Source: Naegleria gruberi | Lineage: Eukaryota | Direction: 5' to 3' (one strand) | DNA length: 64,000 nucleotides | Assembly: GCA_000004985.1 (NCBI GenBank) | Contig: GG738847.1 | Shown: piece by piece, positions 10,440-49,950 of the stretch | Numbering within the stretch: position 1 is the stretch's first letter | Layout of the letters: every line of letters starts with the position of its first letter | Position numbers and translations under genes: made by a program | The notes under the pieces: model-generated | Told to the model about the DNA's origin: nothing | The model's database searches: none | What the model saw: only the letters and a program-made list of their open reading frames with translations

Positions 10440-11021
10440 TTATCTTGTACAAAATTTAACACCTAATTCTGAGGGATGAGACTGTAAATCATCGAATTTA
10501 AGTGGACATTTGAAAATCCATTCACAATTTTCAATCATCTCATCATGTTTCGATTGAACAAATGTTGGAATGTCCAATTTGAATTGAGAGCCATGTAATT
10601 TCACATGTTGCATTCTTCTCCTCAGTAAATGCTGCCAGTTTTTAACATTTAACGATTTTTCAAACCTTGGATAATAACTAAACACCAAAGGTTTCCAAAT
10701 TAATTGCTGAACTCTTTCAAAACTTTCGTCTACAGTTTCGTAATCTTTTTCAATCACATTCTTTTCCACATTAAAAAATAATAATAACATTCTACTATTA
10801 CACAATGCCAAACTATTCAACAGTCTCACATCCATAAATTGTCCAATGTGAACAATCAACTCGGAGGGCAAATCCAACAATTTCACATTTCCAACAATAC
10901 AAATTTGATCTTTTCCATCACATGATGGGGGTTTGTTATTTTCCACTTGCGAAATATCATCACTAGCCTCCACAACACTGCTTTTTGAGAGATTTTTAAA
11001 AGGGTTCTTAAATAATGGCAT
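10440..11021 (-). CDS. hypothetical protein with an F-box-like segment
   Basis: A 193-aa ORF with ATG at 11019-11021. It has an F-box-like LLDLPSELIVHIGQFMDVRLLNSLALCNSR. Confidence 0.45.
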   Translation of the reverse strand: MPLFKNPFKNLSKSSVVEASDDISQVENNKPPSCDGKDQICIVGNVKLLDLPSELIVHIGQFMDVRLLNSLALCNSRMLLLFFNVEKNVIEKDYETVDESFERVQQLIWKPLVFSYYPRFEKSLNVKNWQHLLRRRMQHVKLHGSQFKLDIPTFVQSKHDEMIENCEWIFKCPLKFDDLQSHPSELGVKFCTR

Positions 11022-11200: not shown

Positions 11201-13165
11201 ATGCCTCAACAACAACTCCAGGCATCACGGTTTTCATCCCTTCTTTCAAAATTACCCTCTTTTCGATCGGTGATTCTTCTCTTCTTTTCTCTTCTTTTAA
11301 ATTGTTTTTTATTGTTGTATATTGCTAGATATCATCGGAATGATTATCGGACATCAATTGAAGAATACAATAAATTAATGAATGGTCAAGCCATCACAAC
11401 CACCACAAGTAGTACAACAACAACAATGAGCACGACCTATCTACCAAATGATCAATTTCCCTTCCATATTAAAAAAGCATTAAATACATTGATTGAAAAA
11501 CAAAAAGGCAAATTTACAAGTTTAATTGATTATGGAGTTCCACGTATTGTGACAGCTACATCACATGATTATTTTGATAGACTTGAAAATTTTGTTGGAT
11601 CCATTCATGTAATGTATGAATCGAAAGGAAAGGATTTAAATCCAAGAATTAATTTAAAAACAATACCCAACGATGCAAAGATTAAAAAAGTATCAGATTC
11701 AATGGGTTCAAGTTATTGGTTTGGATGGAATACACTTGTTGAAGAGGAGAGTAGACCAATTCTAGTTTATGATTTGGGACTCACCAAGGAACAACGAGAA
11801 AAGTGTAAATCATGGAAAGGAGTTGAACTTGTGGATTTGGATTTTAATGTATTACCAAAACATTTTACAGAATTGAAAACATTTGCATGGAAACCACTTG
11901 TCATGTATTTGGCATTACAAAAATATCCATCAATAATATTCTTGGATAGTGGTGTTGAATTATGGAATAGATTGGATAAAATTGAAGATATTTTGTTTAC
12001 AAAGGGATATTTCTATGTAGTTCAAGAAGGTTTGAGAACTTTATGGAGATGTTGTGGTGATATTGGAGAATTAACTCATGAAACTACATTTAATCGATTG
12101 GGTTTATCAAGAAAAGAGTTTGGTCCAAAGACAATGTGTAGTGGAGGTATTCAGGGTTATATCAAGGATTCATATGCCTATAAAAATGTACTCGTTCCAA
12201 CATTGGAATGTGCTTGGGAGAAGGAATGTATGGCACCTACAGGAAGTCACATGGGCAACCATCGTCAAGATCAATCAGTTTTTTCATTACTTATTCACAA
12301 ATCAGGTCTAAACTGTGAAACTGATATTAGATTGTGGGGAAATAGAGGAAATTATGTTGATGTTCCAAAAGATGAAATTGTTTTATTCTTGAGAAAGGGA
12401 GCACGTGAAAAGCAATTTGTTGGATTTGCAGAAAAATCAAAGAAATTTGCCATTGTTTTACCATTCAGTGAACAAACCTTTGAAGCACTACTTTCAAATT
12501 TGAATCTTTGGAAGAAGAATTACTATTCGCCATGCACATCTTTATATAGAAGTGAATTTGATAGTGAAAGTGGAATTGATTTAATTTTCTATACCAATAA
12601 GAAATTAGGTGATTCATCCATTAGAGATGTTTCTAGTAGAATTGAACCAATTAGAAAATGTATCAAGAGTTTTGAATTTAAATATATTGATATGCAAGAT
12701 TCTGAAATGGGAAATAGAAATCAACTTTTAAGATTAGTTCAAGATGATTCATTCCATTCCAAGTATCATAGCTTCTTTTACATGACAACATATTCCCGAC
12801 CAATAAGACCAAATTGGATCAATGCAATTAATTCCATTGTCAAAGATTATCAACATTCAAAACCAGATTTTTGGTATATTGGATCGAATAATAGAGCAAA
12901 CTTTGAAATGTTTAATTTTGATGCTAGTGCTATTTATTCAACGGATATTTCATTTAGAACATTTTTGAATGACATTGCTTCAAAACAACAAACTGATCCA
13001 TTCAAAGATTTAATGGAACCAAAGAATTCTGATTTTACTAGGCAAGTGATGAGCAAATTTATTGTTCATGATTTTATTCAAAATTGGTTAAATTTCCCAA
13101 CATTTTCTGAAAAGATTGTCAGAGATTACAATTTGAGAACCTATTTTATTGATACGAGACCATAA
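11201..13165 (+). CDS. type II membrane protein, possibly a nucleotide-diphospho-sugar transferase-like (glycosyltransferase) fold
   Basis: ATG at 11201. The N-terminal signal anchor is VILLFFSLLLNCFLLLYIA. The segment WKPLVMYLALQKYPSIIFLDSGVELWNRL resembles the DxD region of PF03407-type transferases. The assignment is weak. Confidence 0.4.
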   Translation: MPQQQLQASRFSSLLSKLPSFRSVILLFFSLLLNCFLLLYIARYHRNDYRTSIEEYNKLMNGQAITTTTSSTTTTMSTTYLPNDQFPFHIKKALNTLIEKQKGKFTSLIDYGVPRIVTATSHDYFDRLENFVGSIHVMYESKGKDLNPRINLKTIPNDAKIKKVSDSMGSSYWFGWNTLVEEESRPILVYDLGLTKEQREKCKSWKGVELVDLDFNVLPKHFTELKTFAWKPLVMYLALQKYPSIIFLDSGVELWNRLDKIEDILFTKGYFYVVQEGLRTLWRCCGDIGELTHETTFNRLGLSRKEFGPKTMCSGGIQGYIKDSYAYKNVLVPTLECAWEKECMAPTGSHMGNHRQDQSVFSLLIHKSGLNCETDIRLWGNRGNYVDVPKDEIVLFLRKGAREKQFVGFAEKSKKFAIVLPFSEQTFEALLSNLNLWKKNYYSPCTSLYRSEFDSESGIDLIFYTNKKLGDSSIRDVSSRIEPIRKCIKSFEFKYIDMQDSEMGNRNQLLRLVQDDSFHSKYHSFFYMTTYSRPIRPNWINAINSIVKDYQHSKPDFWYIGSNNRANFEMFNFDASAIYSTDISFRTFLNDIASKQQTDPFKDLMEPKNSDFTRQVMSKFIVHDFIQNWLNFPTFSEKIVRDYNLRTYFIDTRP

Positions 13166-14608: not shown

Positions 14609-15172
14609 TTACTCCTTTGATTTTACACTAAATGAAGTTCCACAACTACAACCAGTTTCAGCATTTGGATTCTTTTCAAGAACAAAGGCTGTTTTAGCCA
14701 TCGACTCTACAAAATCAATAGTACTACCCTTAATAAAACTCATTGTAATACTATCAGCAATAACTTTAGATTCTGGATAATTATTATGAATAAATACTTG
14801 ATCATCTTGTTCTACTTGTTTAGAAAAAGTAAATTCAACCTGATATCCACTACAACCACCACTCTCTACAATAACTCGTAACATTCTATCGTGTGCACCC
14901 TTCTTTTCATTGATATCTTTAATTCTTTTAGCACAGGCTTCTGTAATTAAAAGTGAATTTGAATATTCTTCCGATGATGTTGTTTGATTCCTCACACAAG
15001 TATTCAATGAAGTAAATTTTCTATATTGTTGTTGTTGTTGATGATTTTTAAATACGAGACATGATGAAGATGTAGATGATAATGCGGAGTAATGGGATGA
15101 AGGGGAGGATACAAAAATTCTTCTCATCGATGAAAAGACTTGATGGTGGTGTGAGGATGCGTTTTTAATCAT
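14609..15172 (-). CDS. isca: mitochondrial iron-sulfur cluster assembly protein, A-type carrier (IscA/HesB family)
   Basis: ATG at 15170-15172. It has an N-terminal presequence-like region, a HesB core (RVIVESGGCSGYQVEF), and the C-terminal CSCGTSF motif (Cys-x-Cys-G-x-S-F). Confidence 0.8.
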   Translation of the reverse strand: MIKNASSHHHQVFSSMRRIFVSSPSSHYSALSSTSSSCLVFKNHQQQQQYRKFTSLNTCVRNQTTSSEEYSNSLLITEACAKRIKDINEKKGAHDRMLRVIVESGGCSGYQVEFTFSKQVEQDDQVFIHNNYPESKVIADSITMSFIKGSTIDFVESMAKTAFVLEKNPNAETGCSCGTSFSVKSKE

Positions 15173-15311: not shown

Positions 15312-16355
15312 TTACTTTTCAATCTTTCTTAAAGCTTGTTCCAAATAGAAAGGATAAATTAGATCAACAAATTCAGCCCATTCAAAAGCAAGTAAAAATG
15401 GATAATCTTGAACAATCTTTTCCTTTTCTTCTTGAACTTTGTTTAAAGCTTCTTCACTTTCCTCTAGAGCAGATCCAACTATACAGAAATCAGCATCATC
15501 CATACTATTTGTAATCTTTCCATCTCCATATCCAACAAGAAGATGACAATGTTTAAATGTAAGACTTGATGAATCATTAGTTGCAATAAATGATTCAGCC
15601 AAATAAACATTCCTTCCTTTAAGTGGTTTATCCAATCTTTGAACACCATATTTTTCTTCTTCTTCCAATGAACATTTTCCATCTGTAATCCATTTTGTTG
15701 ACATGATTTTCTTTCCTGTTGCTAATGCTTGTAATACTTTCATTGTTCTAGCAAATGGTGGTGCAATAACATGAGTCACATCATCAGTCAAAGTATCTGA
15801 TAGATTACCACACATGTTAAAAAACATGAATCATGACTACATACCAATATCTGCAGCTTGTTCTCCAGCAATTTTAACTCCAAGTGATGTTGCAATTTGT
15901 GTCAATTCCTTTTTCAATGTTTTACTAAATCTATCAGATGAATTTTTAAAACCACTAAATGTGATCACAATTTCTGGTGATTGTGATGTTGTTAATTCTG
16001 GTTTTTCAAGAACTTGATTACCAATAACAGTTGCTACATTAGATTCTCTTTTAACTTTCTTTGCACTAGGTGATGTGGAAGCAAAATCTGTTGATACTAC
16101 TGCAGAAGCACCAGAAACAGCCGATGATAAAGATGATGATGTTTGGGATACTCTAGAAGTGCTTGGTCTATTAGGCTTAGAAATTTCTTCATGTTTTCTC
16201 TTTGTTGAAGATGATGAAGATGAAGATGGCGTGGCGGTTTTACTCTTTCTTCTATCTGGTGTTTGTGATGATTTACCGTTCAAGGATGATGAAGATTCAT
16301 CAATATTATTGGTTGCTTCCGTGGCATTACTTTCCTTGCTTCCTCCTAAACCCAT
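15312..16355 (-). CDS. BRCT-domain protein (two exons)
   Basis: Exon 1 is 15845..16355 (MGLGGSK…), then a 48-nt intron at 15797..15844 (GTATGT…tatcag), then exon 2 at 15312..15796. The join gives a complete BRCT fold (IVITFSGF…LGVKIAGEQAADI-D-TLTDDVTHVIAPPFARTMKVLQALATGKKIMSTKWI). Confidence 0.7.
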
Positions 16356-16464: not shown

Positions 16465-19061
16465 TTATTCTTCATCATCTGGTTTGTGAGTATTGATATA
16501 ATCAGCCAGTTTTCTATCTGTATAATTAATGTGTTTCACTAACCAATTAATTAAATAGTTCAATAATTCAATGTCTAAACTTGTGGCATGACTTTTCAGA
16601 TAATCTTTTTGCATATTTTTCATTTTGGTTGTAAATGTCAAATGTTCTTCATGATGTTTTTTCACATATTCCTCTCCAATTCCCTTCTTGTATTTACTAT
16701 TATTTCAATAATAGAATATTCAATAATTATTACAATTGTTGTACAATATTGATGATGAATTATTATTAAATTTTGTTAAAAATAAAAAACAAACCTCAGT
16801 AACTGTTCCTCATCAGAAAAATGAAATTCCGTATATTCAATTAAACATCCAATTGTATATCCAACAACCCAATGACTTTGAGAAGTGAGTGATGCTTCAC
16901 TTAAATTCTTTAACCATTCAATTAATTGAGCATGTTGTGAATCAATTTGATCACATCCAACTGCATATTTAGTTGGATCCCATGATACAGAAACTAGAAG
17001 TGAATTACGACGTGACATGTTTGACATTCTACTTTGTAATTCACTTGATGAATTCGATGGACTAAATTTGGTTTTCTTCTTCTTATTACCGAATATTGAA
17101 CTCCAAAAACCTTCTTTCTGAATACCAGCATTATCTTGCTCTAATTCCTTTTCCAATTTTTTCAAATCAATATCACGTTCTTTAGCTAATTTATCAATTG
17201 TCTTTTTTTGATTATTCTTAATTTGTAAACTTTTGGATGGGTAGAGATGGTAGAGTTCTTTAATCATTGCAAGTTTTTCATTTCTCACTGCAATATGAAG
17301 TGGTGTATCGCCTACCTTATTAATTACATCTAATTGAATTTCTTTAGATCTAATTAGTAATTCAAAAATTTCCTCTTGTTCTGCCAGCACTGTTACATGA
17401 AGTGGTGTTAATCTATTTTTTTTTATATATATATATTTAAATATTCATATATATTTAAGAGTTAGTTCAATATCAGAGTAAAAATTAAAAGAGTTATATA
17501 AAATAGAGTCAATAAAAAATGAAACATACCCATAAACAGAATCCTTCTCATTAAATAACAATTCCAATTTATCAGAATCTCTTGCTAAACATTTAACAAT
17601 ATGTACCAATGATTCCATATATCCCTTTGAACAGCAATGATGAACAACAGTTTGACCCTTATCATTCTTCATGAATAATAATTTCAATAATTTCTCTCTT
17701 CCAATTGTATTTTCACAAAAATCAATTAAATATTTTGTAATCTTTTCATGTTTAACAGCTCTAAATAAACAACTTTCTTGTTTTGTATTTTTTCTAAAAA
17801 TGTTATGTTTTAAATCTTCAACAATGAATTGAACTTTTTCCAAATCACCTTCTCTACATGCTAAATGTAAAATTGTATTTCCACAATAAACTTTATATTC
17901 AATATCAACATGAAATCCTAATAAAGTTCTTGCAACTGTAAATCCTTTTGATTTGTTAATACTATTTAAGGAAACTGAAAGTGGAGATGCTTCATATTTA
18001 TCATGAGTATTTAAAATAGCTCCATTAATAGCTAACATGGTTACTGATTTAGAATGAGCACTTGAACATGCATAAAATATTGGTGTTGCATCTGACCTAT
18101 CTTTAGATTCTAATAAATCAGGTTGTTTATCCAATAAATATTGCATCACTGTTAAAAAATCAAATTTTGAAGCTGTATGAAGAAGTGAACATTTAGTTTT
18201 TGAATCAATTAAATCTTTTTTAAAATCAATTGTTGAATTATTACAATTATTATGCGTATTATTATGGATATTATTACTATTTATAGTAGTATTTCCATTA
18301 TTAGAATTGTTAGAAGGACTAGTAGTAGATGTATTATTATTATTATTATTATTATTAGAATAAAATAAATAAGATTCTATTAATTGAATCATTTCTAACA
18401 TTTCACTTTCAGTCATTTGAGTTGAATGATGAAGTAAATATGTAATTTTATACAAATTACTTGAAATATATTCTCTAATATCATTTTCAATGACAAATTT
18501 TGATGAAATATCATTGAGTTTGAGACAATTATTATCTGATAAACTTGTGTCTGGATTATTATTCATACTAATACCACTACTATTGGTACTTGCGATAATA
18601 ATATCGCTATTATTATTTCCATTAATAACTCCGCTAACCGTATTATTGCTATTATTATTTTGAATTAACATTGTTTTATGATGTATGTAATCTAAATAAT
18701 CAGTTATTGATTCATTTTCTAAAACTGATGATTCCTCATGATCATGTACAATTGAAGTTAAATGTTGACTACATAAAATTGCAGTTGAACCTTGAATGAA
18801 ACTATTCGAAACTAAATGTTGTTCTTGATCAATATCCTCATCATTATCATCGGATGAATCATCATCATCAATACTAATATTACCTATTTTTGAAACTTTT
18901 TCCAATGATGAATTATTTAATCTGAAGAGTGAATGTGAAGGATGAAGTGGTTTGCTACTATCATTAATTCCTATTAAACTTAATCTTTTGGTTTGTTCGT
19001 AAACGTTAATGATGTCAACTAGACCAAGACGTTCATCTTTCATTTTTTTTTTATTTGACAT
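16465..19061 (-). CDS. ankyrin-repeat protein with a C-terminal hemerythrin-like (HHE cation-binding) domain (three exons)
   Basis: Exon 1 is 17530..19061, with ATG at 19059-19061; the track start is TTG. A 117-nt intron spans 17413..17529. Exon 2 is 16798..17412, a 101-nt intron spans 16697..16797, and exon 3 is 16465..16696. Ankyrin motifs include G-LTPLHVTV and GDTPLHIAV. The hemerythrin signature is WDPTKYAVGCDQIDSQHAQLIEWL … HFSDEEQLL … KHHEEH … LINWLVKHINYTDRKLADYI. Confidence 0.75.
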
Positions 19062-19805: not shown

Positions 19806-20155
19806 ATGTTTAGAAATCTCCAACGCTGCAAAATCCTTGAAAAATTCATCATTGTTAGAACTTTCAGTGAGAAGAAATTTTCATCATCAATTGCAACCAT
19901 TGAATAAATCCACGGTAACCATCACACTACCACAAGATCCAGAAATGGTTAGGGAAGGTGTTTTACAACTTTCTTAAAAAAGAAGGTGATTATTGTAAAC
20001 AAGATGAAGTTGTATTGGAAATGGAAACATACAAAGCTGTATCACAAGTTAGATCACCATATGCAGGAAAAATCATTAAGATATTCACTCCACAGAATAA
20101 TGAAAAGTTTGAAATTGGAAATTCTTTATTTTCTTTAGAATTGGAAAGTGACTAA
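19806..20155 (+). CDS. small mitochondrial lipoyl/biotinyl-attachment-domain protein; the reading frame is broken by two +1 shifts (sequencing error or pseudogene)
   Basis: ATG at 19806 with a presequence-like MFRNLQRCKILEKFII in frame 0. The lipoyl-domain N-half (TVTITLPQDPEMVREGVLQ) is in frame +1 at 19912-19968. The remainder (FLKKEGDYCKQDEVVLEMETYKAVSQVRSPYAGKIIKIF…ESD*) is in frame +2 at 19969-20155. The second shift sits at caactttcttaaaaaag, where an intron will not fit. Confidence 0.4.
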
Positions 20156-27814: not shown

Positions 27815-29167
27815 ATGACAACTTCAACAGATACTGATAGTCAATATTCATCTGTGGTCGGAAAAGAAATTGATGATCATGATGAACAACCAACACTTTT
27901 AGATGTTTTATTATGTTGTTGTATGCCATCACTAAGACCTTCACGTTTAATTTATTCAATTTTATATCCAACATTGAATACAATTTTAAATCAATTTGGA
28001 AATTTTAAACTTGAAAAGATTATTAGAAATATAGTAACTCATCCAATCACTAAATTTATAACTATTCATTATGTTAAAATAATTAGTGTATTAACTTATT
28101 TAAGCATATCATTAATACTTTCAGGATTAGGAGCATTCTTCTTTTCATTAATGTTATTAACTTATTATAGACCACCAACACAATTTGATCATCCAATCTT
28201 TTTTATTAGAAATGGAACAACATTAAGTGCTAATGTGACACTTTTATCACATGATACCTCTAAATCACTTGTTCAAAATGGATTGTATATTGATACTTTT
28301 AAAGTTAAATTTAATTTACCTGAATCAAATGTAAATAGAGATATTGGAATGTTTTCAATTCATGCAGAATTTTATGATAGATATAATTCAAAACTTTATT
28401 CAACATCTAGAAGTGTATGTGTTAAATCTTTAAATCATTCTCAAGGTTTTTCTCAGAGTATTCTCAAATATAAATCAGTAATGAGTGAATTAGTTAATAC
28501 TGTATTTTCATTACCATATGCTTTATTAGGAAAAGCTGATGAAACTGAAACTCAATCTGTTGATATGTTAACTGAAACACAATTATTAGAATTTAATTCA
28601 AGAGTTGTACAAAGAGCTTCACATGTTTATGTTTGGTTATCTCATGATAATTTACAAATTTATAGCAGTAGTATTCAATTATTTGCAAGGGTTACTGGAG
28701 TTTGGCATTATTTGTATCAATATCCAATCACTTGCTTTTTAATTCTATTCCCAATGGCTTTTCTTTCAAATATGAGTGGTTATTTATTTGTTGGTGCCTT
28801 TTTATTTTACAAATTTATTTACAGTAGTGGAAAATCAAATAGCATTACTACTAGTACAATTACAAAACAATCTATTAAGCAACAAGCAACTTCTAATGAA
28901 AGTTCAACTACTTCAAGAAAGAAAAAGATTACAACAACAACTGTTAGAAGAAAGAAGATTATTCATACCTCATCATCTGATTCTATCAGTGATGATAATG
29001 ATAGTATTGATGAGGACATTAATGAAAATATTGAGAATGATGAACAACAACCAAGTAGAATTGATTCACCTTCTCAAAGCTCTACAACAAGTACAACAAA
29101 AAGACAAGCTGCCTCAAACAAATTGAAAAAGAGATTAAAGAAGAGAATTGAATTACAAGATGAATAA
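27815..29167 (+). CDS. seipin (BSCL2/Sei1 homolog), an ER lipid-droplet biogenesis protein
   Basis: ATG at 27815. The topology is TM1, lumenal domain, TM2. The lumenal domain carries the seipin signature NLPESNVNRDIGMFSIHAEFYDRYNSKLYSTSRSVCVKS (compare human LELPESPVNQDLGMFLV…STSSRSVML) and IQLFARVTGVWHYLYQYPITCFLIL (compare [32 protein letters not shown]). Confidence 0.75.
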   Translation: MTTSTDTDSQYSSVVGKEIDDHDEQPTLLDVLLCCCMPSLRPSRLIYSILYPTLNTILNQFGNFKLEKIIRNIVTHPITKFITIHYVKIISVLTYLSISLILSGLGAFFFSLMLLTYYRPPTQFDHPIFFIRNGTTLSANVTLLSHDTSKSLVQNGLYIDTFKVKFNLPESNVNRDIGMFSIHAEFYDRYNSKLYSTSRSVCVKSLNHSQGFSQSILKYKSVMSELVNTVFSLPYALLGKADETETQSVDMLTETQLLEFNSRVVQRASHVYVWLSHDNLQIYSSSIQLFARVTGVWHYLYQYPITCFLILFPMAFLSNMSGYLFVGAFLFYKFIYSSGKSNSITTSTITKQSIKQQATSNESSTTSRKKKITTTTVRRKKIIHTSSSDSISDDNDSIDEDINENIENDEQQPSRIDSPSQSSTTSTTKRQAASNKLKKRLKKRIELQDE

Positions 29168-29495
29168 ACTGTTAAAACCTTAAATTGATGATAAAACAAT
29201 CAGAAATCATTATTCTCAAAAATGTAATATCCTTAACCTTCTTGATGTATTCATGAATCACTCATTAAATGTTGTGCACCTTAATCAATGTTGTATGACA
29301 ACTCAAGAATGTATTCTTCCTCTGATACAAGTTGTTTATTAAAATCAGAGTCAATGGATGATACAAAATACAACATGCTGCTAATTCTTTCTCTCGGTAA
29401 GTTGTCAATGCAAAGAAACACGGAAAGCCTTCGGCATTTGAATAAAAAATATTCCAAATTACAAAAAAAATACAACCACTTGGAAAACCCTTATA

Positions 29496-31207
29496 ATGTC
29501 ATCCGAAATTTTAAAACAAGGTGCCCACGAAGAAAAGGGTGAAATGGCCTTTATGGTATGTATAGAGAAATTTGATGATGTATATTAAAGGATTGATGAT
29601 AAACGGGATGTGGATTTTCTTCATTTCATACAACAACAAAAATTTGATACAATATTGATAATACTTTTTTAAAAACAACAATACAACAGAGTAACATCAT
29701 TGGTGCCATTGCTGTAGCTGACCTTCTTAAAACAACCCTTGGTCCAAAGGGTATGGATAAGATTTTAGTTAAAGTTTCTGAAGGAGCCGACGGAAAGGTT
29801 GAAGTCACCAACGATGGTGCCACTATCTTGAAAGCCCTTTCTATTCAAAATCCAGCTGCTAGAATTCTTGTAGATATTGCCAAGACCCAAGATGAAGAAG
29901 TTGGTGATGGTACTACTTCAGTTTGTGTCTTCACAGGAGAATTGTTGAGACAAGGAGAAAAACTTTTAGATCAAAAGATACACCCTCAAACTATTATTTC
30001 TGGTTGGAGAAAGGCTTTAACTGTTGCTCACGCATCACTTTTGAAGGCCTCTGTTGATCACGGAAATGATAAGGAAGCATTGAAGAATGACTTGTTAAAC
30101 ATTGCACGTACAACATTATCATCAAAGATTTTGCAACAAGAAAAGGAATTGTTCGCTCAACTTGCTGTTGAAGCTGTTCTTAGATTGAACGGAAGTACTG
30201 ATTTAAATCATATTCAAATTCTTAAGAAGCCAGGTGGTTCTATGAAGGACAGTTATTTGGATGACGGATTTCTTCTTGATAAAAGTGTAGGAGTTGGTCA
30301 ACCAAAGAAAATGGAAAATTGTAAGATTCTCGTTTCTAACACACCTATGGATACTGATAAAATTAAGATTAACGGTGCTGTTGTAAAGACAGCCAGTATT
30401 GCTACACTTTCAGAAATTGAAAAGGCTGAAAAGGAAAAGATGAAGAAAAAATGTCAAAAGATTGTTGATCACGGAATTAATGTTTTCATTAACAGACAAC
30501 TTATTTATGATTATCCTCAAGAATACTTTGCTGATAATGGAGTTATGGCTATTGAACATGCCGATTTTGAAGGTGTTGAAAGATTGGCTCTCGTTTTGGG
30601 TGCTGAAATTGTTTCAACATTTGAACATCCAGAATTAGTTAAATTGGGAACTTGTGCTGCTGTTGAAGAAATAATGATTGGTGAAGACAAACTTTTGAGA
30701 TTTAGAGGATGTGCTAAGAATGAAGCTTGTACAATTGTTTTACGTGGTGCTTCTACTCACCTTTTGGAAGAAGCTGATCGTTCTCTCCATGATGCTCTCT
30801 GTGTCTTGTCTCAAACTGTTCTTAACACAAAGACTGTTTTGGGAGGTGGTTGTAGTGAAATGTTGATGGCTAAAGCTGTCTCTGAAGCTGCTAAACAAAC
30901 TCCTGGTAAGGAATCAATTGCTATGGAAGCTTTCGCTAACGCTCTTAAGGCAATGCCTGCTATCCTTGCTGACAATGCTGGTTTGGACTCTGCTGAATTG
31001 GTTTCCGTTCTTGAAACTGAACATTACAAGGGTAATTCTGATTTTGGTATTGATGTTGTCAAAGGTGAAATTGGAAATTTGAGAACTTTAGGTATAACAG
31101 AATCATTCAAAGTGAAAGAACAAGTTCTTTTATCTGCATCGGAAGCTGCTGAAATGATTATCAGAACTGACGAAATTTGCTACTGTGCCCCTAGACAAAG
31201 AGAATAA
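29496..31207 (+). CDS. cct2: T-complex protein 1 (CCT/TRiC chaperonin) subunit beta, two exons
   Basis: Exon 1 is 29496..29555 ([20 protein letters not shown]) with a GTATGT donor. The intron spans 29556..29689. Exon 2 is 29690..31207. The full length is collinear with CCT-beta ([26 protein letters not shown]…[18 protein letters not shown]…[28 protein letters not shown]). Confidence 0.9.
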
Positions 31208-39789: not shown

Positions 39790-41155
39790 TTATTGTTTAG
39801 TAGTAGCATTTTCAAATCTTTGAACAAGTCTTTGATTTTGACCACTGTGTGGCTTCTTTTCAAGTCTCTTATCCAGCAATGACTTGGCAATTGGATGATT
39901 TTCCTTGTTTGGTGAATTGAAAATGGCATGAAGGAATAAAAGTTCAAATACATCTCTTTGAGCATTAGATCCACCAATTAAATGAGTCTTTCCAGGGAGA
40001 ATGACATCTTTGAGTAATTGAATAGTTTCATCAAATTTAGAATCATTAAAAGCATTAATTGCCTTACAAATTGGAATACCAACTTGTTGATGAACAAGAG
40101 CACAAGTATGATTAACATCATTAGATTTGGAATTTGTATAATTTTCCAATGATTGAATATGTGAATTAATAATTTCTTCATGAATTAATCTATTATTAAA
40201 TACCATTGTAATATGAGCATCATTAAAAGATAAAGCATGACTATGAATAATATTTTTCCATTGATTTCTAACCTTTTCCCATCTATTATCATTCTTTTCA
40301 ATCATACCTTCTAAATATAATCTAAATAATAAAGCAGAAGCATCAACTAAATCTAATGGAGTAATTGACTCGATGAAAATTGAAATCTTTTCATCATAAA
40401 TTTTTAAAATTTCATCCTTTTTTCCTTGATCCATTAAATATAAACAGAAATGCCACCACATATGACATGCTAATGCTTGACAATTAGCCCAATTATTTTC
40501 TTCTAATTTCATAAATTCAATTCCTTTTTGAATTTCACCTCTCATTTCATTAATATGAACAATTGCATGTAATGCCCATGCATCATCTTGATTAATTTCA
40601 ATAGCTTTAATTGCTGCTTTCATACCTTCATCATATCTATGTACTTCTTCTAATCCAAATGCTTTTTATATTAAATAAAATTAAAAATTAAATTAAAAAT
40701 ATTTAATAATATTTAATAAAATAAAAAATAAAAAATAACCCACCTAACATTCCCATAAAATAACCATATAATTCCATAGGTACATGATCATCTTGTTCAT
40801 AAATATTTAAATGTTTTTCAACACTTGAACAAATATTATTAGATTGACCAAGATAGAAATAAGCATCATGTGCAAATTTAAGTGCAATTACATCTAATGA
40901 ATCAATTTTTAATAATTCTTCCCATATTTCAGTAGCATTAATATATCTACCTTCTCTCCATGATTCTAATGCTTTAATATGAAGAATTTCAATTTCATTT
41001 TCACTTTTTAATTCTTTTAAAAATTTTAATTTTTTTAAATAATTTTCATTATCTAAAAATAGATCAGTTCTTAATAATTCACTTCCTAATTCAATCACTC
41101 TTGCCATTACATTTAATGGTTCTTCTTTTAATGTTTTTTCAAGTGTTTCTGTCAT
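39790..41155 (-). CDS. ttc38: tetratricopeptide repeat protein 38 (TTC38) homolog, at least two exons; the 5' end may extend into the N-gap
   Basis: Exon 1 is 40744..41155 and runs up to the gap. An 82-nt intron spans 40662..40743 (GTGGGT…aaaaag). Exon 2 is 39790..40661. It is collinear with TTC38 (IDSLDVIALKFAHDAYFYLGQ; DAWALHAIVHINEMRGEIQKGIEFM; WWHFCLYL; IGGSNAQRDVFELLFLHAIF). Confidence 0.8.
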
Positions 41156-41660
41156 TGAATTCTTCCATCCAATGTACTTTTATGATCATGATGATTATAT
41201 GTATACTTAATTGTATTGTTATTACNNNNNNNNNNNNNNNNNNNNNNNNNNNNNNNNNNNNNNNNNNNNNNNNNNNNNNNNNNNNNNNNNNNNNNNNNNN
41301 NNNNNNNNNNNNNNNNNNNNNNNNNNNNNNNNNNNNNNNNNNNNNNNNNNNNNNNNNNNNNNNNNNNNNNNNNNNNNNNNNNNNNNNNNNNNNNNNNNNN
41401 NNNNNNNNNNNNNNNNNNNNNNNNNNNNNNNNNNNNNNNNNNNNNNNNNNNNNNNNNNNNNNNNNNNNNNNNNNNNNNNNNNNNNNNNNNNNNNNNNNNN
41501 NNNNNTCCAACATACACACTCCTCAAAGATAAAATATCTTAATCACTCCCAATTTTAATCAATGATTATTATCCACACTGTACTACTACTACTACTTGAA
41601 GAGATTACCATTAAATTAAATAATATTAATATATTCAATTATAAAATTCAATTAAAAAAA

Positions 41661-42379
41661 ATGTTGTCCAAATTTAAAAACTGTTTAAACATTTCTTCTT
41701 CTTCAAGAAACAAATTCATTCAATCATCACTATGTAAATTAAATAATACCACCAATAATATTACCAATAATAATAATATTTATCGTTCATTTACCATTAC
41801 TAATTCAACATTCTCTTCTTCTTCCGATAATAATTCATCATCATCATCATTTACATCACAACAACAATTAGAACAATTAAATAATAACAATTCATCTCCA
41901 TCATCCAATAATAATAATTCTAATAATTCTTCTAATAATAATAATTCTTCTTCTAATCATACATTTTCATTAGAAGATTTAGATAAAGTAAAAGAAGAAT
42001 TAATTAAAAATTTATTAGAAATTGATTCTAATTCATCAGTTCCATTACCATCACCTGGTAAATCATCTGGTGATCAATCAATTGATGAAGCAACTAAACA
42101 ATGGAGATTAACAAATACTAAAGATGATGAAAATTTACAAAAATTATTTAAATCAACAAAACAAAAAGCATCAACTTCTTTATTAGAACAATCTCAATTA
42201 AATAGTAATATTAATGATATGGAAAATGATGATTTTGAAGTTGGTGTTGATAAAGATGAATTTTCTAAATATGTTAATCCATTCAATCCTGAAACACAAG
42301 AAGTTAATGGTCCAAAAAGGTGCTGAACCTACTAGATTTGGTGATTGGGAAAGAAGTGGAAGATGTGTTGATTTTTAAA
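41661..42379 (+). CDS. sdhaf4: succinate dehydrogenase assembly factor 4 (SDHAF4 / DUF1674) homolog; a -1 frameshift at an A5 run near the C-terminus
   Basis: ATG at 41661 with a mitochondrial-presequence-like N-terminus and an Asn/Ser-rich linker. The C-terminal signature NPFNPETQEVNGPK is followed, after removing one A from ccaaaaagg (~42320), by GAEPTRFGDWERSGRCVDF*. This matches the SDHAF4 terminus GPKGPEPTRYGDWERKGR. Confidence 0.6.
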
Positions 42380-42492
42380 ATATTTTAAAAATTATATTAT
42401 ATTAATAATACCCTTTTTTATTAAAATAATAATATTTATAATTAAAATAAATATTATAAAAATATAATATAATAAATATAATAATAATAAAA

Positions 42493-44052
42493 TTATTCAT
42501 TAACTTTTGAAACAATTCTCTTAAATCTCATAATATTTAATTTTTCAAAAATGAATTTAAATAAAATGGTAACCTTATTAACTCTCTTTTTAAAACCAAT
42601 TCTTGCCATACCTTCACTATACTTGTTAATTCTTTCAAATGATAATTTAGAATCTTGTTCATATAATTGTAATGCTTGATTAGTTAATCCATGTTCATTT
42701 AATTGAATACATAATTGAATTGCATCATGAATAGCAACATTACCACGTTGAAATAATGTTGGATCAACACTGTGTGCTACTCCACCAATTGCAACTATAT
42801 TACCATTGGCACTATTATTATTACCAGTATTATTATTACTGCTAGTATTACTAGTATTATTCTTATTAATATTACTAGTATTATTATTATTAATATTAAA
42901 AGGAATAAATAAATTCTTCAATTCATGATCATATGAAATTTGAGAATGTGCAATGGTATGAATTCTATTTCTAGAATAAACGTATTGTCTAATAATATCA
43001 ATAACACTATCAACACCATTATCTCTTAAATTAGTATGAATCTTATTAACGAAATGAAGTGAATTTGTAGAATTTCTTTCCATTCCTAATGCAGAATGTT
43101 TTGGAATGTATTGAATTGAATGAATTCCTAATTGTTGATTTGATAAAGGTATAATTGCTAATCTACTTGAATTATTCCACCATTCAAATAATCTATTTTC
43201 ATAATCAATATCAGAAGGTGAAGGTAAAATAATTGTATCACATTCATAATTTCTAGATTTTAAAATTAATTCATTTCCTAATTTAGTTTGTAAATATTTA
43301 ACAGATTGTGATTGTGAAATATCATCTTCTGCTGCAACAAGTAAATCAACATGACGTTTTGTAATTGATTTTTTAGTTGAAAGTGAAATTCTATTACCAT
43401 TTTCATTAATATTTCTAATATTATCATTAATTAAATTAATATTTGATAATTTTTGTAATTTATCATTTAATAATTTTAATAAATAACTTTTTTGACATGA
43501 ATATAAACATGGTGGTGTTGTATTTTTTAAATCCATAACTGTTAATGCATTACGTATATCTGCACGTATTAAATGATAATGTGTTAATTTAATTACATTT
43601 TTAGATTGTTTTAAATCAATTTCACAATATTCATTCAATAATTCAATACTTTTATGTGATAATACTAATATTTCATCTTTAATATCTTCACTTGTTGTAT
43701 ATATATCAATTATACTTTGTGGTTCTTTTAATGAATATGCAATTGAAAATACTAATCCTTCAATAGTTTGTCCACTTACACCAATATGTTGTTGTTGTTG
43801 TTTTTTATTATTATTATTATTAGTTGTATTAGTAGTTGTATTAGTATGAGTTGTAGTAGTAGTATTAGTAGTAGAAGTAGATGAAGGCTTTGGTGCATAG
43901 ACTCTCAAGGAGGATGAAAAATTAGCCTTGTTGAAGAAATTTGTTGAAGAAGAAGTAAATTATTATGAGTAGAAATAGAAGAAGGATAAAAAGACTTGGT
44001 CATTTCATTGGCCAACATGGAGTGAGCCGAATGACGCAATAAACGCAAACTT
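42493..44052 (-). CDS. UbiH/COQ6-family FAD-dependent monooxygenase-like protein with degenerate cofactor motifs; a probable short 5' exon encodes a mitochondrial presequence
   Basis: The main exon is 42493..43908. The GD-AH-x-P-x-GQG-N-type motif is present but degenerate (IVAIGGVAHSVDPTLFQRGNVAIHDAIQL). The GADG motif is replaced by VAAEDD, and the GxGxxG is replaced by GVSGQTIEG. The upstream in-strand ATG at ~44052 reads MKSLRLLRHSAHSMLANEMTK… in a different frame, so an intron or frameshift is implied. Confidence 0.5.
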
Positions 44053-46097
44053 TTCATTTTTTTTCAATTTTACCTTTTATTGTGTGAATGAATACTAAAA
44101 TGGCCATTCAATTAGATGAGTTTAAAACACAATTATTGCCTTTATCATATTATTATATTGAAATTACAATGAAAGTTAATTAAATATGTAATTTTTCATG
44201 ATATTATCTTTCATTGTGAGAATGGATCCATAATTATAGATATTCAATACATTTAATACTTCCTATATTAAAATAAATAATAATAATGAAACAATAATAA
44301 TAAATTAAATTTTTAAATAAACATAGGATAGAGTTTGTATTAATAAAAGTTTATTTAATATTTTTAATTTTATATTTAATTGAATAACTTTTAATTAAAC
44401 TTAATTTTTGTTTATTAAAATTAATTACATAAACAATTTTCATAATACAATAAATTAAATACAATATTTTAAATTCAATTAATTTTTTTCCTTTTTCATA
44501 TAAAATTCAACCAAGAATATTTATTATAATGAATATAATTACCCTCTATTAATTTATAATTTAAATTATTTAAATAAATATCATTATTCTTTAAAGTACT
44601 ATTAATAATATTTAGTTTATTATCATTTAAACTACTAATAAGTATTTTTATAGGCATTAATATTTTACATTATTAATGTATTTTAAATAGACTTGTTGAT
44701 TATGATTTTATAAATAATTAGTTTAAATTTAATTATAAATGTTCGATAATATATTTTGTACAATTACAATTAGGTATTATCTGCTAATAATAAATCTATC
44801 CTGGATTCCATTAAGAATATTTAATTTTAATTAACATGTATTAATATTAGCATGTTTCAATTTGCAAAAATTTATGCCATTAAGTTTGCTCAAGAACTGA
44901 ATTCAGTGATCGGAACAGATATTACTAACCTTCTCAACTAAGTTTTATGAAGGAACGAAGCATTGTTGTTATGACAACTTTTACCATGAGCTGATTGTTG
45001 TATATGGTTTATTAACAAAAATACTTAGGCTAAGACGGTTACATTATTGTATTTCTACAACTGCGGTACATAACCAAAACTCAATAAATGTAGATGAACA
45101 CTACCATTGAGTAAATAGCTAGGTACGGTAGTTGCTAATACCATAGAATCATAGAATAATATAGTATACAGTACTATCAGTACTATACATCTCAATATAT
45201 GTCATCGTAACTATTTTCTGTTGAATTACACTTACGTTGATCACGGTTACAATGTATAATTGATTGATCGAACGGTACAAAGAATACAACAATATTTTCA
45301 TTGAGAATAGATTTTAATTCATACCTCATTATCTGAAGCACTTCTACATAGTACATGATGTTAATTAATTGGTGCCGAAGAGGAAACAACACAAGGATCA
45401 CCAACACCTCAAAATGAGAACAAAATTCTCCTGGTAATACTGACAACGGAGAGGAACCAGAAGATGACGAGGCAGGGTTTAGGCCATATATCCTAATCAT
45501 TAAATGAATCTATTGTACAACAAACATTAAATGATTGCGTGTAGACGATTTACCATTAATAGAAGTGCCACTTTATTATTTGAATCTGATTAGTGTATNN
45601 NNNNNNNNNNNNNNNNNNNNNNNNNNNNNNNNNNNNNNNNNNNNNNNNNNNNNNNNNNNNNNNNNNNNNNNNNNNNNNNNNNNNNNNNNNNNNNNNNNNN
45701 NNNNNNNNNNNNNNNNNNNNNNNNNNNNNNNNNNNNNNNNNNNNNNNNNNNNNNNNNNNNNNNNNNNNNNNNNNNNNNNNNNNNNNNNNNNNNNNNNNNN
45801 NNNNNNNNNNNNNNNNNNNNNNNNNNNNNNNNNNNNNNNNNNNNNNNNNNNNNNNNNNNNNNNNNNNNNNNNNNNNNNNNNNNNNNNNNNNNNNNNNNNN
45901 NNNNNNNNNNNNNNNNNNNNNNNNNNNNNNNNNNNNNNNNNNNNNNNNNNNNNNNNNNNNNNNNNNNNNNNNNNNNNNNNNNNNNNNNATTAATATGAAC
46001 AATTGCATGTAATGCCCATGCATCTACATACGAAATATTCTGGAAGACAATTTATCATCGATACGTCATTACTAATATTATTGAAAAATATCAAAAG

Positions 46098-47823
46098 ATG
46101 AAAGACTATGGTGCTACTACCAGTGCAACTAACAATATTCCACTGAGTGAAATACTCAATGATTCGAAACATTACAATAGAGAGAAGAAGAAACAAACTT
46201 TGAAACTAATCAGAGGAATTAAATCAAATTCTGGACAGAAAAAACTAATTCCCTTCGTTGTACATAGGGCAGTGATGCAATCACTTTTGAATGCCTATGA
46301 TAAACATATATTGGAGGTATGATAAACATATATTGGAGGATGGTAGTGCTGCTGAGAGAACCTCTTCTATAAAGGAAAAACTATTTTTAAATTTACAACA
46401 AAATGTGGTGGATAAAGGATTCAAGTATTTGATGGAAAAACAAATTAATTCAGAAATGACTATAGCTCAAAATGTTTTCTTTGGAGGTTTGAAGACTACT
46501 TTTCAACATCATTCAAATGAAATTGTACTGAATTTTCTGATACATGTCTTGGGAGAGGAATATATGAGTAATATTAGTGTAAAGAAGAAATTTAATCCAA
46601 ATGTAATTGATTTGAAATTGGTTCTAAAGAAATTATTCAGAGGAATTTCCGAAGAGTTTCATTCTAAATTGTATTGGGATATGATGATAGAATTATCATT
46701 GCAGAAATTACCTGAATTAATTCCAAAGAAAGAATTTTCAAATGTTTTAAAGGGCTTATTCGAATCTAGAAAATTCAAAGCTCCAATATCTTGGATATCA
46801 ATTATGTATGCCAATTGTTATTATTATGAGGATGTAAATGAGCTAATGTATGAACTTTTGAATAGGAATGGAATTGATACTTTTGGACCATTGGCAATAA
46901 GTGAATATTTTACAGAATCCATTTCAAAAACATTTTCTTTATTGGCAGAATATCAGTTTTTCATCAAATATTTACAATTTTTGGGAAAATTCCTAGAAGG
47001 AGAGAAAATTAATGTACAAGTTACTGAAAATAGTTATTTTTATTCGTTAATGGGACGATTATCCAATGAAGAGAGTACTAATTTGAATGATTTTCTTGAT
47101 AATTTACCAATTCCATTATTAGAGATGATTAACTTGAAAAGTATGAACCAATTCCATGTCAATATACATAGAATATTGGAATATGTTAAAGGGAAAGGAA
47201 TTTTATATTCTCAATCAGCCATAGAGAATTATTTGGCAGGATTTTACCTCTATTCAACACAATACGGTCAAATAATTAAATTCTTAATTGACAATTATCA
47301 TACAGCAGATATTTATGAAATAGAAAAGAAGGTGAAATTCTACCCAAAACTTGTACAATATTTATCAAATATCTATAATAATGTGGCTGTATATGTTAAT
47401 GAGTTTGCCACTTTATTTCCATCAGATAAACCAATTGATTTGGACAAGCTTTCTGAATCGTGCAGTAGTAGTAGTAGTAGAAGTAGTATTAGTATTGGAG
47501 ATTTAATTTTAAAAAATTGGAAAAATCCAAAAGAATTTGTACAATTTTGTAAGAAACGTTTCATTCAGAATATTTTCTATTTACCAACAGTTTACCGTAT
47601 TCTGTCACAAGTACTCAAATATTACAATGATAATTTAGAGATTAAGAGAGCTATCTATGAAGCAGCCATGTTTAATGAAAATCTAAAGCTCTCTAATTAC
47701 GTTACCCAATTACTTGAGGAAGAACCTGAATTATTACAAGAAACCACACTTCAATTCAATAATTATCATCAAACAGATCCAAGGTTTGCCATTTCAGTCT
47801 ATCTATTTTGTAATGAGAAATAA
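46098..47823 (+). CDS. hypothetical protein; the ORF is interrupted by a 22-bp tandem duplication at 46300-46343
   Basis: ORFs 46098..46322 and 46291..47823 fuse into one ~580-aa frame if one copy of TATGATAAACATATATTGGAGG is removed (…LLNAYDKHILEDGSAAERTSS…). No domain recognised. Confidence 0.45.
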
Positions 47824-48074
47824 TTATTTTTGTAAGCAATCCAGAGTTGGTAAAAAACCCATTTTTGAAACAAACGAGAATTTTCCATTTCTTCATATCT
47901 TTAGAGACCTCTATTGTTTCTTCCTTCTGACTTTTTGGATTAAATTCAATAGTTTTGAATATTGCTCTCCTTGATTTTGTTTGTGGTTTTATATCTAAAT
48001 TTACAATAATAATATCATACATATTTACAATTATTTTTCTGCAATATTTAAAGTGATTTGCTTTTCAGCCAAGT

Positions 48075-49791
48075 TTGCTAGAGTCAGTGGCTTTGACAAC
48101 AATAACCACCACACACAACAATAATAATACTAATACCAATACTAATAATAATATTAACAATAACAATATTAACAATAATACTCATTGTCTTCCCAATGAC
48201 ATGTTAATAATAATATTTCAATTTCTCAATCAACAAGATTTTATTATAATGTCACTTGTTTGTAAATATTGGAGATTTGTTGGTCAACAACCATTCCGAA
48301 AGGAATTTACAAATTACAAATTATACCCCTCTTATTCAATGATTACTCCAACATTTATTACCAATTCATTTGAATTTTTTAATTTCTTTTCTTCCATAAC
48401 ATGCTATTTATTTAATACAGTACCTAAATCAACATTTAAAACTATTTTACTCTCTCAGAAATTACAAAGTTTATTTGTAGATTCTTGTTGTTTGGTTAAA
48501 AATATAATACCATTCCATTCAATGATAAAAAAACATTCCTCCAATAATATCACTGAATTGGGATTAAATTATAAAATGAAAAAGAAAGATTTACGTGCTC
48601 TATTTCAAGTACTTCCAAATTTGAAACATTTAAGTTTAGGAATGGGAGCAACAGAATGTTTAATTAGTACAGAATCATTTCTTAGTACATGTTGTCATAA
48701 ATTAGAATCACTCCATTTACAATTATTACCTGAAAATCATAAAAATATTGTAAAATTATTAAATGGAATATTTAATCCATCACTTTCAACAACAACAACA
48801 ATATCCAATCTCATTGATATTAGAATATTTATAACAGAATCTTATTCAATTAATAGAAAATTAATTTTACATTTGATTTTAATTCATTTCCATATTTAAA
48901 ATATTTATTTCTTGATATTACCTATATTTATACATTAGAATCAATTAGTAATGTATTATTAAATTCAACTAATATTTCAAAATTAATAGAATTTGGATTT
49001 GGAACTGTTAGAAAATCTATTGAAAAATTACATTTTAAAAATAGTGAAAATTTAAAAAATTTAAAAAAATTATTTTTAAATAGAACAGAAATGATGACAA
49101 ATATAGATAATCTTCCTTCATTAGAATTATTATATATAGATGAACATGAAAAAAAACATTGTTCCACTAAAAATTATTCAAAACCATGGAATTTAGCATT
49201 NNNNNNNNNNNNNNNNNNNNNNNNNNNNNNNNNNNNNNNNNNNNNNNNNNATTTTTGTTTTGATCTTACCATAATTTAGATTTATCTGAATTGAGTCAAT
49301 TAAATTTAGAAATATTAATTCTTAGAATTCCTGTCGAAAATTATAGGATATTTCATCACATTTCTAAAATATTAACATTGAGAGAATTAACATTTCATTC
49401 TCATAATATTTATGCAACTGATTTGAAATTACTTTGTAAATTACCAAATTTAGAATATCTTTACATTAGATTGGAACATAAAAGTGAAACATCTTTTACT
49501 TTTAATTCACTAACTACACTTTCAATTTATTCAGATAATTTGAAACAATTAAATTTCTTTCAAATATCAAATTTACCAAAATTGAAAACTTTAATGGTTC
49601 GTAATAATCGGGATAATAACCATAAATGGTGGTTGCAACCATTATTTCCAAATTTACAAATACTTGTTGCCAACAATACAGGAACATTTTTAGCATCTCC
49701 ATATAATGATGGTATGAATTTTGGTGCGTGTGATATTTTGCAAAGAATAACAAATTATGAATATGTAGCCCACTTTCCAAAAAAATTTTGA
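48075..49791 (+). CDS. F-box / leucine-rich-repeat protein; spans the N-gap at 49201-49250; 5' exon not located
   Basis: F-box LPNDMLIIIFQFLNQQDFIIMSLVCKYWRFV is followed by LRR-like repeats up to 49791. Track start 48075 is TTG; a ttttcag acceptor at ~48069 suggests an upstream exon. Confidence 0.55.
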
Positions 49792-49950
49792 TACTATTAG
49801 GATGAAATAAATGTGAATATTTAAAAATTTTAATCATCATTATGATTCAATAATAATTGTAGTGTTAATAGTTAGTAATTAAATATCATTGATATTAAAA
49901 TATTAAATATTTACTTTATATTTTTAATTTAAATATAATTATAATAATAA

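Follow-up and report, generated by a model that had tools for sequence, protein, structure and literature searches.

An ankyrin-repeat protein of Naegleria gruberi with a C-terminal bacteriohemerythrin-class domain: corrected gene model and a candidate sensor role

We analyzed a minus-strand gene in a 64,000-nucleotide (nt) stretch of Naegleria gruberi DNA (contig GG738847.1 of assembly GCA_000004985.1; hereafter the window, whose numbering is used for all positions unless stated otherwise). Judged by its reading frame, its domain matches and its orthologs, this is one protein-coding gene, NAEGRDRAFT_45711, encoding one ankyrin-hemerythrin protein: three exons join in frame into a 2382-nt coding sequence for 793 amino acids (aa), with eight ankyrin repeats and, at the C-terminus, an entire hemerythrin domain that falls in the O2-binding bacteriohemerythrin class. 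Mis-splicing in the public model of the locus conceals this fusion.

Reconstruction of the gene model

The gene was assembled from three open reading frames (ORFs), a 550-codon ORF at 19097-17445 with its first ATG at 19061, followed by ORFs at 17390-16776 and 16665-16465, the last of which ends in the TAA stop codon at 16467-16465. The exons are separated by two GT..AG introns (Table 1), with the donor G/GTATGT at 17530/17529 and the acceptor ..AAATAG/A at 17413/17412 for intron 1, and the donor AG/GTTTGT at 16795/16794 and the acceptor ..AATAG/T at 16697/16696 for intron 2. Both junctions (..KDSVYG/LTPLH.. and ..DEEQLL/SKYKKGIGEEY..) are supported by a five-way ortholog alignment that crosses them without an indel and that includes the Naegleria lovaniensis protein and two metagenome proteins (P0002 and P0005) in which the full architecture lies in a single uninterrupted, intronless ORF. 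The first-pass annotation of the window had proposed that three joined exons encode a protein that begins with an Asn-rich stretch, continues with several ankyrin repeats and ends in a full hemerythrin domain, and this was borne out by the in-frame coding sequence, the Pfam matches and the ortholog alignment; all four hemerythrin motifs that it quoted were found in the 793-aa translation. The conserved ortholog starts MKDER, MKEER and MKHER align to M7 of the N. gruberi ORF (ATG 19043), and thus the true start may be M7, with a 787-aa product, instead of M1 (19061).

The exon-2 translation, used as the query of an exhaustive HMMER search, retrieved a 404-aa "predicted protein" (P0026; EFC49732.1 / XP_002682476.1 / NAEGRDRAFT_45711 / UniProt D2V0J3, on a 941,567-bp scaffold) that is 98% identical over the match and was assembled from pieces of the same locus. 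This public model retains aa 1-201 and then joins ..REYIS to MLAEQEE.., losing ankyrin repeats 1-6 and keeping the last two; downstream, intron 2 is left unspliced and translated as far as a stop codon (..EEQLLRFVFYF), at the cost of the second half of the hemerythrin domain. Because the domain is truncated there, a Pfam scan of the 404-aa model revealed no hemerythrin domain, and its ankyrin signal was sub-threshold only. Domain-based hemerythrin surveys and proteomics searches would therefore probably misread the locus under XP_002682476.1 / D2V0J3. The former accession appears among the N. gruberi proteins that a copper-limitation study identified by mass spectrometry (supplementary proteomics table of PMC9035749); for the BCS experiment the table scores it as present in one condition alone, apparently within a down-regulated block, although the direction is uncertain. 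The listing shows only that peptides of the ankyrin-hemerythrin locus were detected.

It is very improbable that the model wrongly splices together an ankyrin ORF and hemerythrin ORFs that belong to distinct genes or are pieces of pseudogenes: the three-exon model was assembled from genomic sequence and the public model deviates from it, but collinearity with the single-ORF orthologs P0002 and P0005 effectively refutes two separate genes, the other orthologs align across both junctions as well, and the public model itself drops six of eight strongly conserved ankyrin repeats and ends by intron read-through.

Intron positions differ among close relatives of this gene. The N. gruberi introns measure 117 and 98 nt (17413-17529 and 16697-16794). 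The N. lovaniensis ortholog has two very short introns of 45 and 48 nt (11717-11761 and ~11819-11866 of its locus, L001), both containing in-frame stops and both located inside the hemerythrin domain at sites other than those of N. gruberi; the Willaertia magna ortholog has one 260-nt intron in ankyrin repeat 2 (10529-10788 of its locus, L002), and the two metagenome orthologs have none. These non-conserved positions suggest recent intron gain or loss in the gene.

Table 1. Coordinates of the ankyrin-hemerythrin gene, its parts and its downstream neighbors in the window. Identities are mean pairwise values per region among five orthologs.
Feature	Coordinates	Strand	Remarks
Ankyrin-hemerythrin gene, ATG to stop	16465..19061	minus	NAEGRDRAFT_45711 locus; corrected model 793 aa
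Exon 1	17530..19061	minus	aa 1-510 + 2 nt; first ATG 19061
Intron 1	17413..17529	minus	117 nt, GTATGT..TAG, phase 2, within ankyrin repeat 7 (..DSVYG/LTPLH..)
Exon 2	16795..17412	minus	ankyrin repeats 7-8, linker, first hemerythrin half (ligands H671, H708, E712)
Intron 2	16697..16794	minus	98 nt, GTTTGT..TAG, phase 2, within hemerythrin domain (..EEQLL/SKYKKG..)
Exon 3	16465..16696	minus	second hemerythrin half (ligands H731, H735, H772, D777) and stop codon
N-terminal motif MKDERxxxxDIIxVxExTKRL	18981..19043	minus	aa 7-27; 59% identity
Variable low-complexity region	18210..18980	minus	aa 28-284; Asn/Ser/Asp-rich; 16% identity; species-specific insertions
Ankyrin domain	17190..18209	minus	aa 285-585, across intron 1; 70% identity
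Linker	16989..17189	minus	aa 586-652; 52% identity; predicted disordered in ortholog model
Hemerythrin domain	16489..16988	minus	aa 653-786, across intron 2; 69% identity
Ligand codon H671	16932-16934	minus	
Ligand codon H708	16821-16823	minus	
Ligand codon E712	16809-16811	minus	
Ligand codon H731	16654-16656	minus	
Ligand codon H735	16642-16644	minus	
Ligand codon H772	16531-16533	minus	
Ligand codon D777	16516-16518	minus	
BRCT-domain gene, downstream neighbor	15312..16355 (approx.)	minus	BRCT 39.3 bits; two ORFs; between the ankyrin-hemerythrin gene and the Fe-S carrier
A-type Fe-S carrier (ISCA-like, PF01521), second downstream neighbor	14609..15172	minus	Fe-S_biosyn 40.4 bits

Class and metal site of the hemerythrin domain

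The joined protein matched the Pfam models expected from the first-pass annotation, with the Hemerythrin family (PF01814) at 42.3 bits against a gathering threshold of 25.3 (aa 665-782, profile positions 4-125 of 127) and Ank_2 at 96.9 bits against 27.3 (E 1e-27), together with Ank at 71.8 and Ank_4 at 77.3 bits. Among the NCBIfam models, the domain scored above the cut-offs of the hemerythrin domain TIGR02481 (88.5 bits; cut-off 51.75) and of the bacteriohemerythrin model NF033749 (85.1 bits; cut-off 84), and far below that of the animal/myohemerythrin-type family TIGR00058 (31.2 bits; cut-off 131.85). The best matches of solved structure were the bacteriohemerythrin of Methylococcus capsulatus (McHr, PDB 4xpx; E 5.7e-7) and DcrH-Hr (PDB 2avk; E 3.4e-6); myohemerythrin (PDB 1a7d) was marginal at E 0.03, and FBXL5 chains were absent from these matches even at E<=1.

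The diiron ligand pattern H..HxxxE..HxxxH..HxxxxD is complete (H671, H708/E712, H731/H735 and H772/D777), with H671 matched to H22 of McHr by residue counting in the alignment and the other six ligands by motif. All seven ligands are invariant across the five orthologs, as are the ligand-adjacent hydrophobic residues F709, W768, L769 and I773. The segment WLVKHI (also written WLVxHI) corresponds to WLVNHI of McHr, and the three McHr chains matched differ only at the Leu of this segment (L, F or A); we take these chains to be the Leu114 variants made for the study of a solvent or O2 tunnel. McHr, in which the ligand positions correspond and this segment is shared including the Leu, is a 131-aa single domain, whereas the Naegleria protein adds ~650 N-terminal residues with eight ankyrin repeats. 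A four-helix up-and-down bundle is predicted for the domain in the AlphaFold2 model of the 79%-identical N. lovaniensis ortholog. The ligand pattern together with the best matches, McHr and DcrH-Hr, assigns the C-terminal domain to the O2-binding bacteriohemerythrin class.

The first-pass annotation had named FBXL5 and plant BTS as analogs, and these belong to the wrong hemerythrin subfamily for this domain; of the two ligand comparisons that it suggested, the one with bacteriohemerythrin gave agreement at all seven ligands, and the one with FBXL5 gave no match to compare. The ligand sets of FBXL5 and BTS/HRZ probably differ as well. An iron sensor of the FBXL5 type was rejected because F-box and LRR domains and an FBXL5 match are lacking and the hemerythrin domain is C-terminal, whereas that of FBXL5 is N-terminal. 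The BTS/HRZ type needs several hemerythrin domains and a CHY/RING part, and here Pfam gives one hemerythrin domain and no zinc finger; across the 793-aa protein the Pfam scan found ankyrin and hemerythrin as the only domain types, with no F-box, LRR, RING or zinc-finger domain. The animal/myohemerythrin type was rejected on the TIGR00058 and myohemerythrin scores given above.

Published hemerythrins of Naegleria species are of the single-domain kind, including Nfa1, the Naegleria fowleri hemerythrin A0A6A5BXL4 and the N. gruberi "myohemerythrin" XP_002680302.1. The first described N. fowleri hemerythrin shares >43% identity with those of annelids, and heterolobosean hemerythrins cluster with their metazoan counterparts (PMC2556348). 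N. gruberi has about five single-domain copies (PMC2556348, PMC7326272), and these proteins are abundant and fall sharply under iron starvation (PMC7326272). They share the organism group, the superfamily and O2-binding class with the fused domain but are ~13-15 kDa, abundant and iron-regulated, and they are set apart from it by family-model scores and publications rather than by direct alignment. By the model scores (31 bits for TIGR00058 vs 85-88 bits for the bacteriohemerythrin models), the fused domain belongs to a separate lineage, so that Naegleria has two lineages of hemerythrin that are evolutionarily distinct, the myohemerythrin-like single-domain proteins and the bacteriohemerythrin-like fused domain. 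A survey of O2-binding hemerythrins reported that N. gruberi has "both single-domain and long" sequences but left the long ones undescribed (PMC4919030).

Protein architecture and conservation

The eight ankyrin repeats start at aa 290, 324, 357, 394, 428, 469, 511 and 545, and membership in the ankyrin-repeat family is evident from the Pfam Ank models and from the solenoid recognized by Foldseek. The regional identities (Table 1) point to strong purifying selection on both folded parts of the protein, and the contrast of the ankyrin (70%) and hemerythrin (69%) domains with the N-terminal spacer (16%) is consistent with a conserved partner and a functional metal site. Within the linker, two elements are conserved, the helical segment KLAKExDIDLKKLEKELEQDNAGIQKEGFW and the basic-x-x-Ser motif SRRNSLL, and a run of basic residues is also present.

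AlphaFold2 was run on the N. lovaniensis ortholog with an alignment of the orthologs and single-domain hemerythrins, yielding a model with a mean predicted local distance difference test (pLDDT) value of 75 and a predicted template modeling (pTM) score of 0.54. In the ortholog's own numbering, the model has a confident ankyrin solenoid at about residues 110-465 and four long C-terminal helices (532-553, 558-585, 592-619 and 626-653) with block-mean pLDDT values mostly of 85-94, whereas the linker (467-515) and the N-terminal spacer are predicted to be disordered. Foldseek comparison of the whole model with the PDB retrieved ankyrin solenoids over 320-360 columns, with E values down to 2.6e-10; being swamped by ankyrin matches, this search is not an independent confirmation of the hemerythrin fold.

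Two smaller elements were also observed. The N-terminal motif, also written MKDERxSxLDIIxVFExTKRL, is predicted with low confidence to form a single helix and matched no Pfam family. The basic-x-x-Ser motif lies just upstream of the hemerythrin domain (aa ~640-652, 16989-17030) and is present in all five orthologs (SRRNSLL, SKRKSLL, AKRKSQL, SQKKSQL); phosphorylation of this motif by an AGC kinase might regulate the linker.

Orthologs, paralogs and rarity of the fusion

The closest full-length relatives are the 660-aa protein of N. lovaniensis (P0001; 79% identity over the aligned part), the metagenome protein P0002 (77%), the W. magna protein P0003 (68%) and the metagenome protein P0005 (57%), and each of them has Pfam ankyrin and hemerythrin domains. 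An exhaustive HMMER scan of 1.84 billion representatives with the exon-2 translation added three proteins with the same two domains, namely a 928-aa protein of W. magna (P0165, KAL9641939.1), a metagenome protein that ends at a contig end (P0113) and a protein from the SRA run SRR8832428 (P0164). Within W. magna, P0003 and P0165 align collinearly through the ankyrin, linker and hemerythrin regions at 30% identity (E 2e-72). A second paralogous clade shares the architecture; the collinearity implies that the fusion is older than a duplication, and we infer that it is old within this heterolobosean group. On these comparisons the family is conserved over Naegleria, Willaertia and uncultured relatives. 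N. gruberi belongs to the Heterolobosea, and the Amoebozoa suggested in the first-pass annotation are therefore not the relevant lineage.

The statement of the first-pass annotation that the ankyrin-hemerythrin architecture is uncommon held up, as only seven proteins with both domains were present among the best 150 matches of the scan, a list led by giant ankyrin proteins. The full-length homolog search returned five orthologs only, with no N. fowleri entry and no correct entry for N. gruberi, but poly-Asn words probably swamped the candidates, so that absence from N. fowleri is not inferable. A pattern scan of 185,579 prokaryote genomes found nothing related, a scan of JGI metagenome contigs found only two short ankyrin-only fragments, and an exact-sequence look-up in the contig index found neither the ISCA ORF discussed below nor the public 404-aa model. 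We found no publication in the literature search that names the gene or discusses an ankyrin-hemerythrin fusion. Multidomain hemerythrin proteins are a known class, to which this protein adds a new combination of domains.

Word-index searches with the hemerythrin domain alone and with a linker-hemerythrin profile gave prokaryote-type hemerythrins of 131-144 aa, 30-40% identical, as the nearest single-domain relatives (P0010-P0024, P0173-P0178). These include proteins from metagenome-assembled genomes of Thorarchaeota (Asgard) and Thermoplasmata, which give no more than a hint of where the domain came from; the searches are non-exhaustive and missed known orthologs, and the conclusion on origin stops at "bacteriohemerythrin-like".

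Genomic context

As noted in the first-pass annotation, a BRCT gene and an A-type Fe-S carrier lie on the same strand downstream of the ankyrin-hemerythrin gene, the stop codon of which lies 1.3 kb from the start of the carrier. The BRCT gene is probably split by an intron. The iron-related neighborhood that the annotation suggested, and itself labeled as speculation, did not survive comparison with four orthologous loci. In N. lovaniensis the ortholog is followed by a BRCT gene (56% identity to the C-terminal BRCT ORF here) and then by an inorganic pyrophosphatase, with no ISCA; the neighbor of the W. magna ortholog is PEX11, and unrelated genes surround the ortholog on the two metagenome contigs. 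The BRCT neighbor is thus common only to N. lovaniensis among these loci. By tblastn, ISCA was absent within 10 kb of the ortholog in N. lovaniensis, in W. magna and on the P0005 contig, and from the entire 7.5-kb P0002 contig. Since ISCA is not beside any examined ortholog, we rejected the iron-related neighborhood and treat ISCA as a species-specific neighbor whose adjacency is coincidental.

The wider region shows loose synteny, with a Peptidase_M14 gene near the ankyrin-hemerythrin gene in N. gruberi and N. lovaniensis and a Seipin and CCT chaperonin pair near it in N. gruberi and W. magna (395-2014 and 27815-31207 of the window; 21573-22076 of L001; 20223-22222 of L002). This synteny indicates that the locus is positionally orthologous, and the differing orientation of the syntenic genes relative to the ankyrin-hemerythrin gene implies local inversions. 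On the opposite strand, ~0.9 kb beyond the 5' end of the gene, a short ORF (19958-20155, plus strand) matches the biotin/lipoyl attachment domain (36.6 bits) and is probably one exon of a larger unmodeled gene. Elsewhere in the window, positions 40001-52000 are very AT-rich, with a GC content of 19-23% in several 2-kb windows and a strongly negative GC skew (-0.39 at 40-42 kb, -0.33 at 50-52 kb); only short AT-rich tandem repeats were found there.

Proposed function

We propose, with about an even balance of confidence and doubt, that the protein joins a diiron sensor responsive to O2, redox state or iron to an ankyrin scaffold for protein binding. The hemerythrin domain would bind a diiron center and signal its state to the remainder of the protein, the state reported being deoxy, oxy or met, nitric oxide (NO)-bound, or iron-free. 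The diiron state would in turn alter the engagement of one or more conserved partner proteins by the ankyrin solenoid. O2 or redox state is the most plausible signal, and iron availability the main alternative. In this reading the protein would parallel, in a eukaryote, the multidomain hemerythrin sensors of bacteria, such as DcrH and Bhr-DGC, with a protein-binding scaffold replacing the enzymatic or chemotaxis output.

The proposed sensor role is modeled on DcrH, Bhr-DGC and further bacterial hemerythrins of the multidomain type, which are precedents for sensing, and on the functional side on FBXL5. DcrH of Desulfovibrio vulgaris likewise has a C-terminal hemerythrin domain with the same diiron ligand set on a larger signaling-type protein; in contrast to the ankyrin repeats of the Naegleria protein, its output is a methyl-accepting chemotaxis signaling domain, and it is prokaryotic, membrane-associated and intronless. 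In Bhr-DGC of Vibrio cholerae and in bacterial Hr-GGDEF, Hr-response-regulator and MCP-Hr proteins, hemerythrin (Hr) is similarly the sensor module of a longer protein, whereas these are bacterial and their outputs are enzymatic or phosphorelay modules. Distant matches in our searches included such sensor-type architectures, namely Hr with GGDEF (P0179), Hr with a response regulator (P0180) and MCP with Hr (P0182). Mammalian FBXL5 and plant BTS/HRZ resemble the Naegleria protein in being multidomain proteins of eukaryotes whose hemerythrin-like diiron domain controls a module for protein interaction, but they represent another hemerythrin subfamily with no sequence match, and their outputs are F-box plus LRRs or a RING E3 ligase. 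About half of the O2-binding hemerythrins are terminal domains of longer signaling or protein-binding proteins (PMC4919030).

Several points weigh against the sensor reading. Metal content, ligand binding, partners and phenotype are all inferred from sequence, and the ankyrin repeats are uninformative on the output pathway. The NF033749 score exceeds its cut-off only marginally, and the AlphaFold2 model is unreliable on the contact between the ankyrin and hemerythrin parts, given its pTM score and the disordered linker. The mass spectrometry listing is an on/off call, and the protein is probably of low abundance. An O2 store, an NO scavenger and an FBXL5-like stability switch predict the same sequence features as a sensor, and the corresponding readings, considered below, are inseparable from it by sequence alone.

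One alternative, which we regard as unlikely, is an iron switch of the FBXL5 kind, in which the domain would fold and the protein would be stable with iron, and the apo-domain would unfold without it, so that the protein would be degraded or change partners; an ankyrin-mediated pathway would thereby be linked to cellular iron. The complete diiron site is compatible with such a switch, and FBXL5 and BTS provide eukaryotic precedents. Naegleria hemerythrins are among the proteins most strongly regulated by iron, with levels reduced ~7000-fold when N. fowleri is starved of it, and the response of Naegleria to such starvation has been described as mostly post-translational (PMC7326272). However, the iron-regulated Naegleria proteins are single-domain hemerythrins and not the ankyrin fusion, and the fused domain is of the O2-binding class, with no FBXL5 chain matched at E<=1. 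The hemerythrin domain of FBXL5 has no significant similarity to O2-binding hemerythrins (PMC4919030), the F-box, LRR or RING output is missing by Pfam, and the ISCA neighbor that prompted this reading is not conserved.

Also improbable, in our estimate, is a tethered O2 store or carrier, or an NO or peroxide scavenger, which the ankyrin repeats would anchor to an enzyme, membrane or cytoskeletal site. The closest solved relative, McHr, has been proposed to deliver O2 to methane monooxygenase, and ankyrin repeats are often anchors. In vitro, O2 binding and NO consumption have been reported for one of the single-domain hemerythrins of N. fowleri (PMC11964265). On the other hand, one domain on a ~90-kDa and apparently low-abundance protein would make a poor bulk store or scavenger, and Naegleria already has ~five abundant single-domain hemerythrins to fill these roles (PMC2556348, PMC7326272).

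Implications

A more specific form of the sensor reading, which we put forward as a tentative and rather doubtful possibility, is that the protein is a heterolobosean-specific O2, NO or iron sensor, in which a bacterial-type hemerythrin captured once was fused to an ankyrin scaffold and would control a lineage-specific response through protein-protein interactions. Candidate responses would be the aerobic-anaerobic metabolic switch, amoeba-to-flagellate differentiation and the post-translational iron-sparing program. Naegleria is without an inducible iron-uptake system (PMC7326272). If true, such a sensor would be a way of sensing O2 in eukaryotes that depends neither on prolyl hydroxylases nor on FBXL5. 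The ankyrin-hemerythrin protein is a concrete, testable candidate for oxygen or iron sensing in Naegleria.

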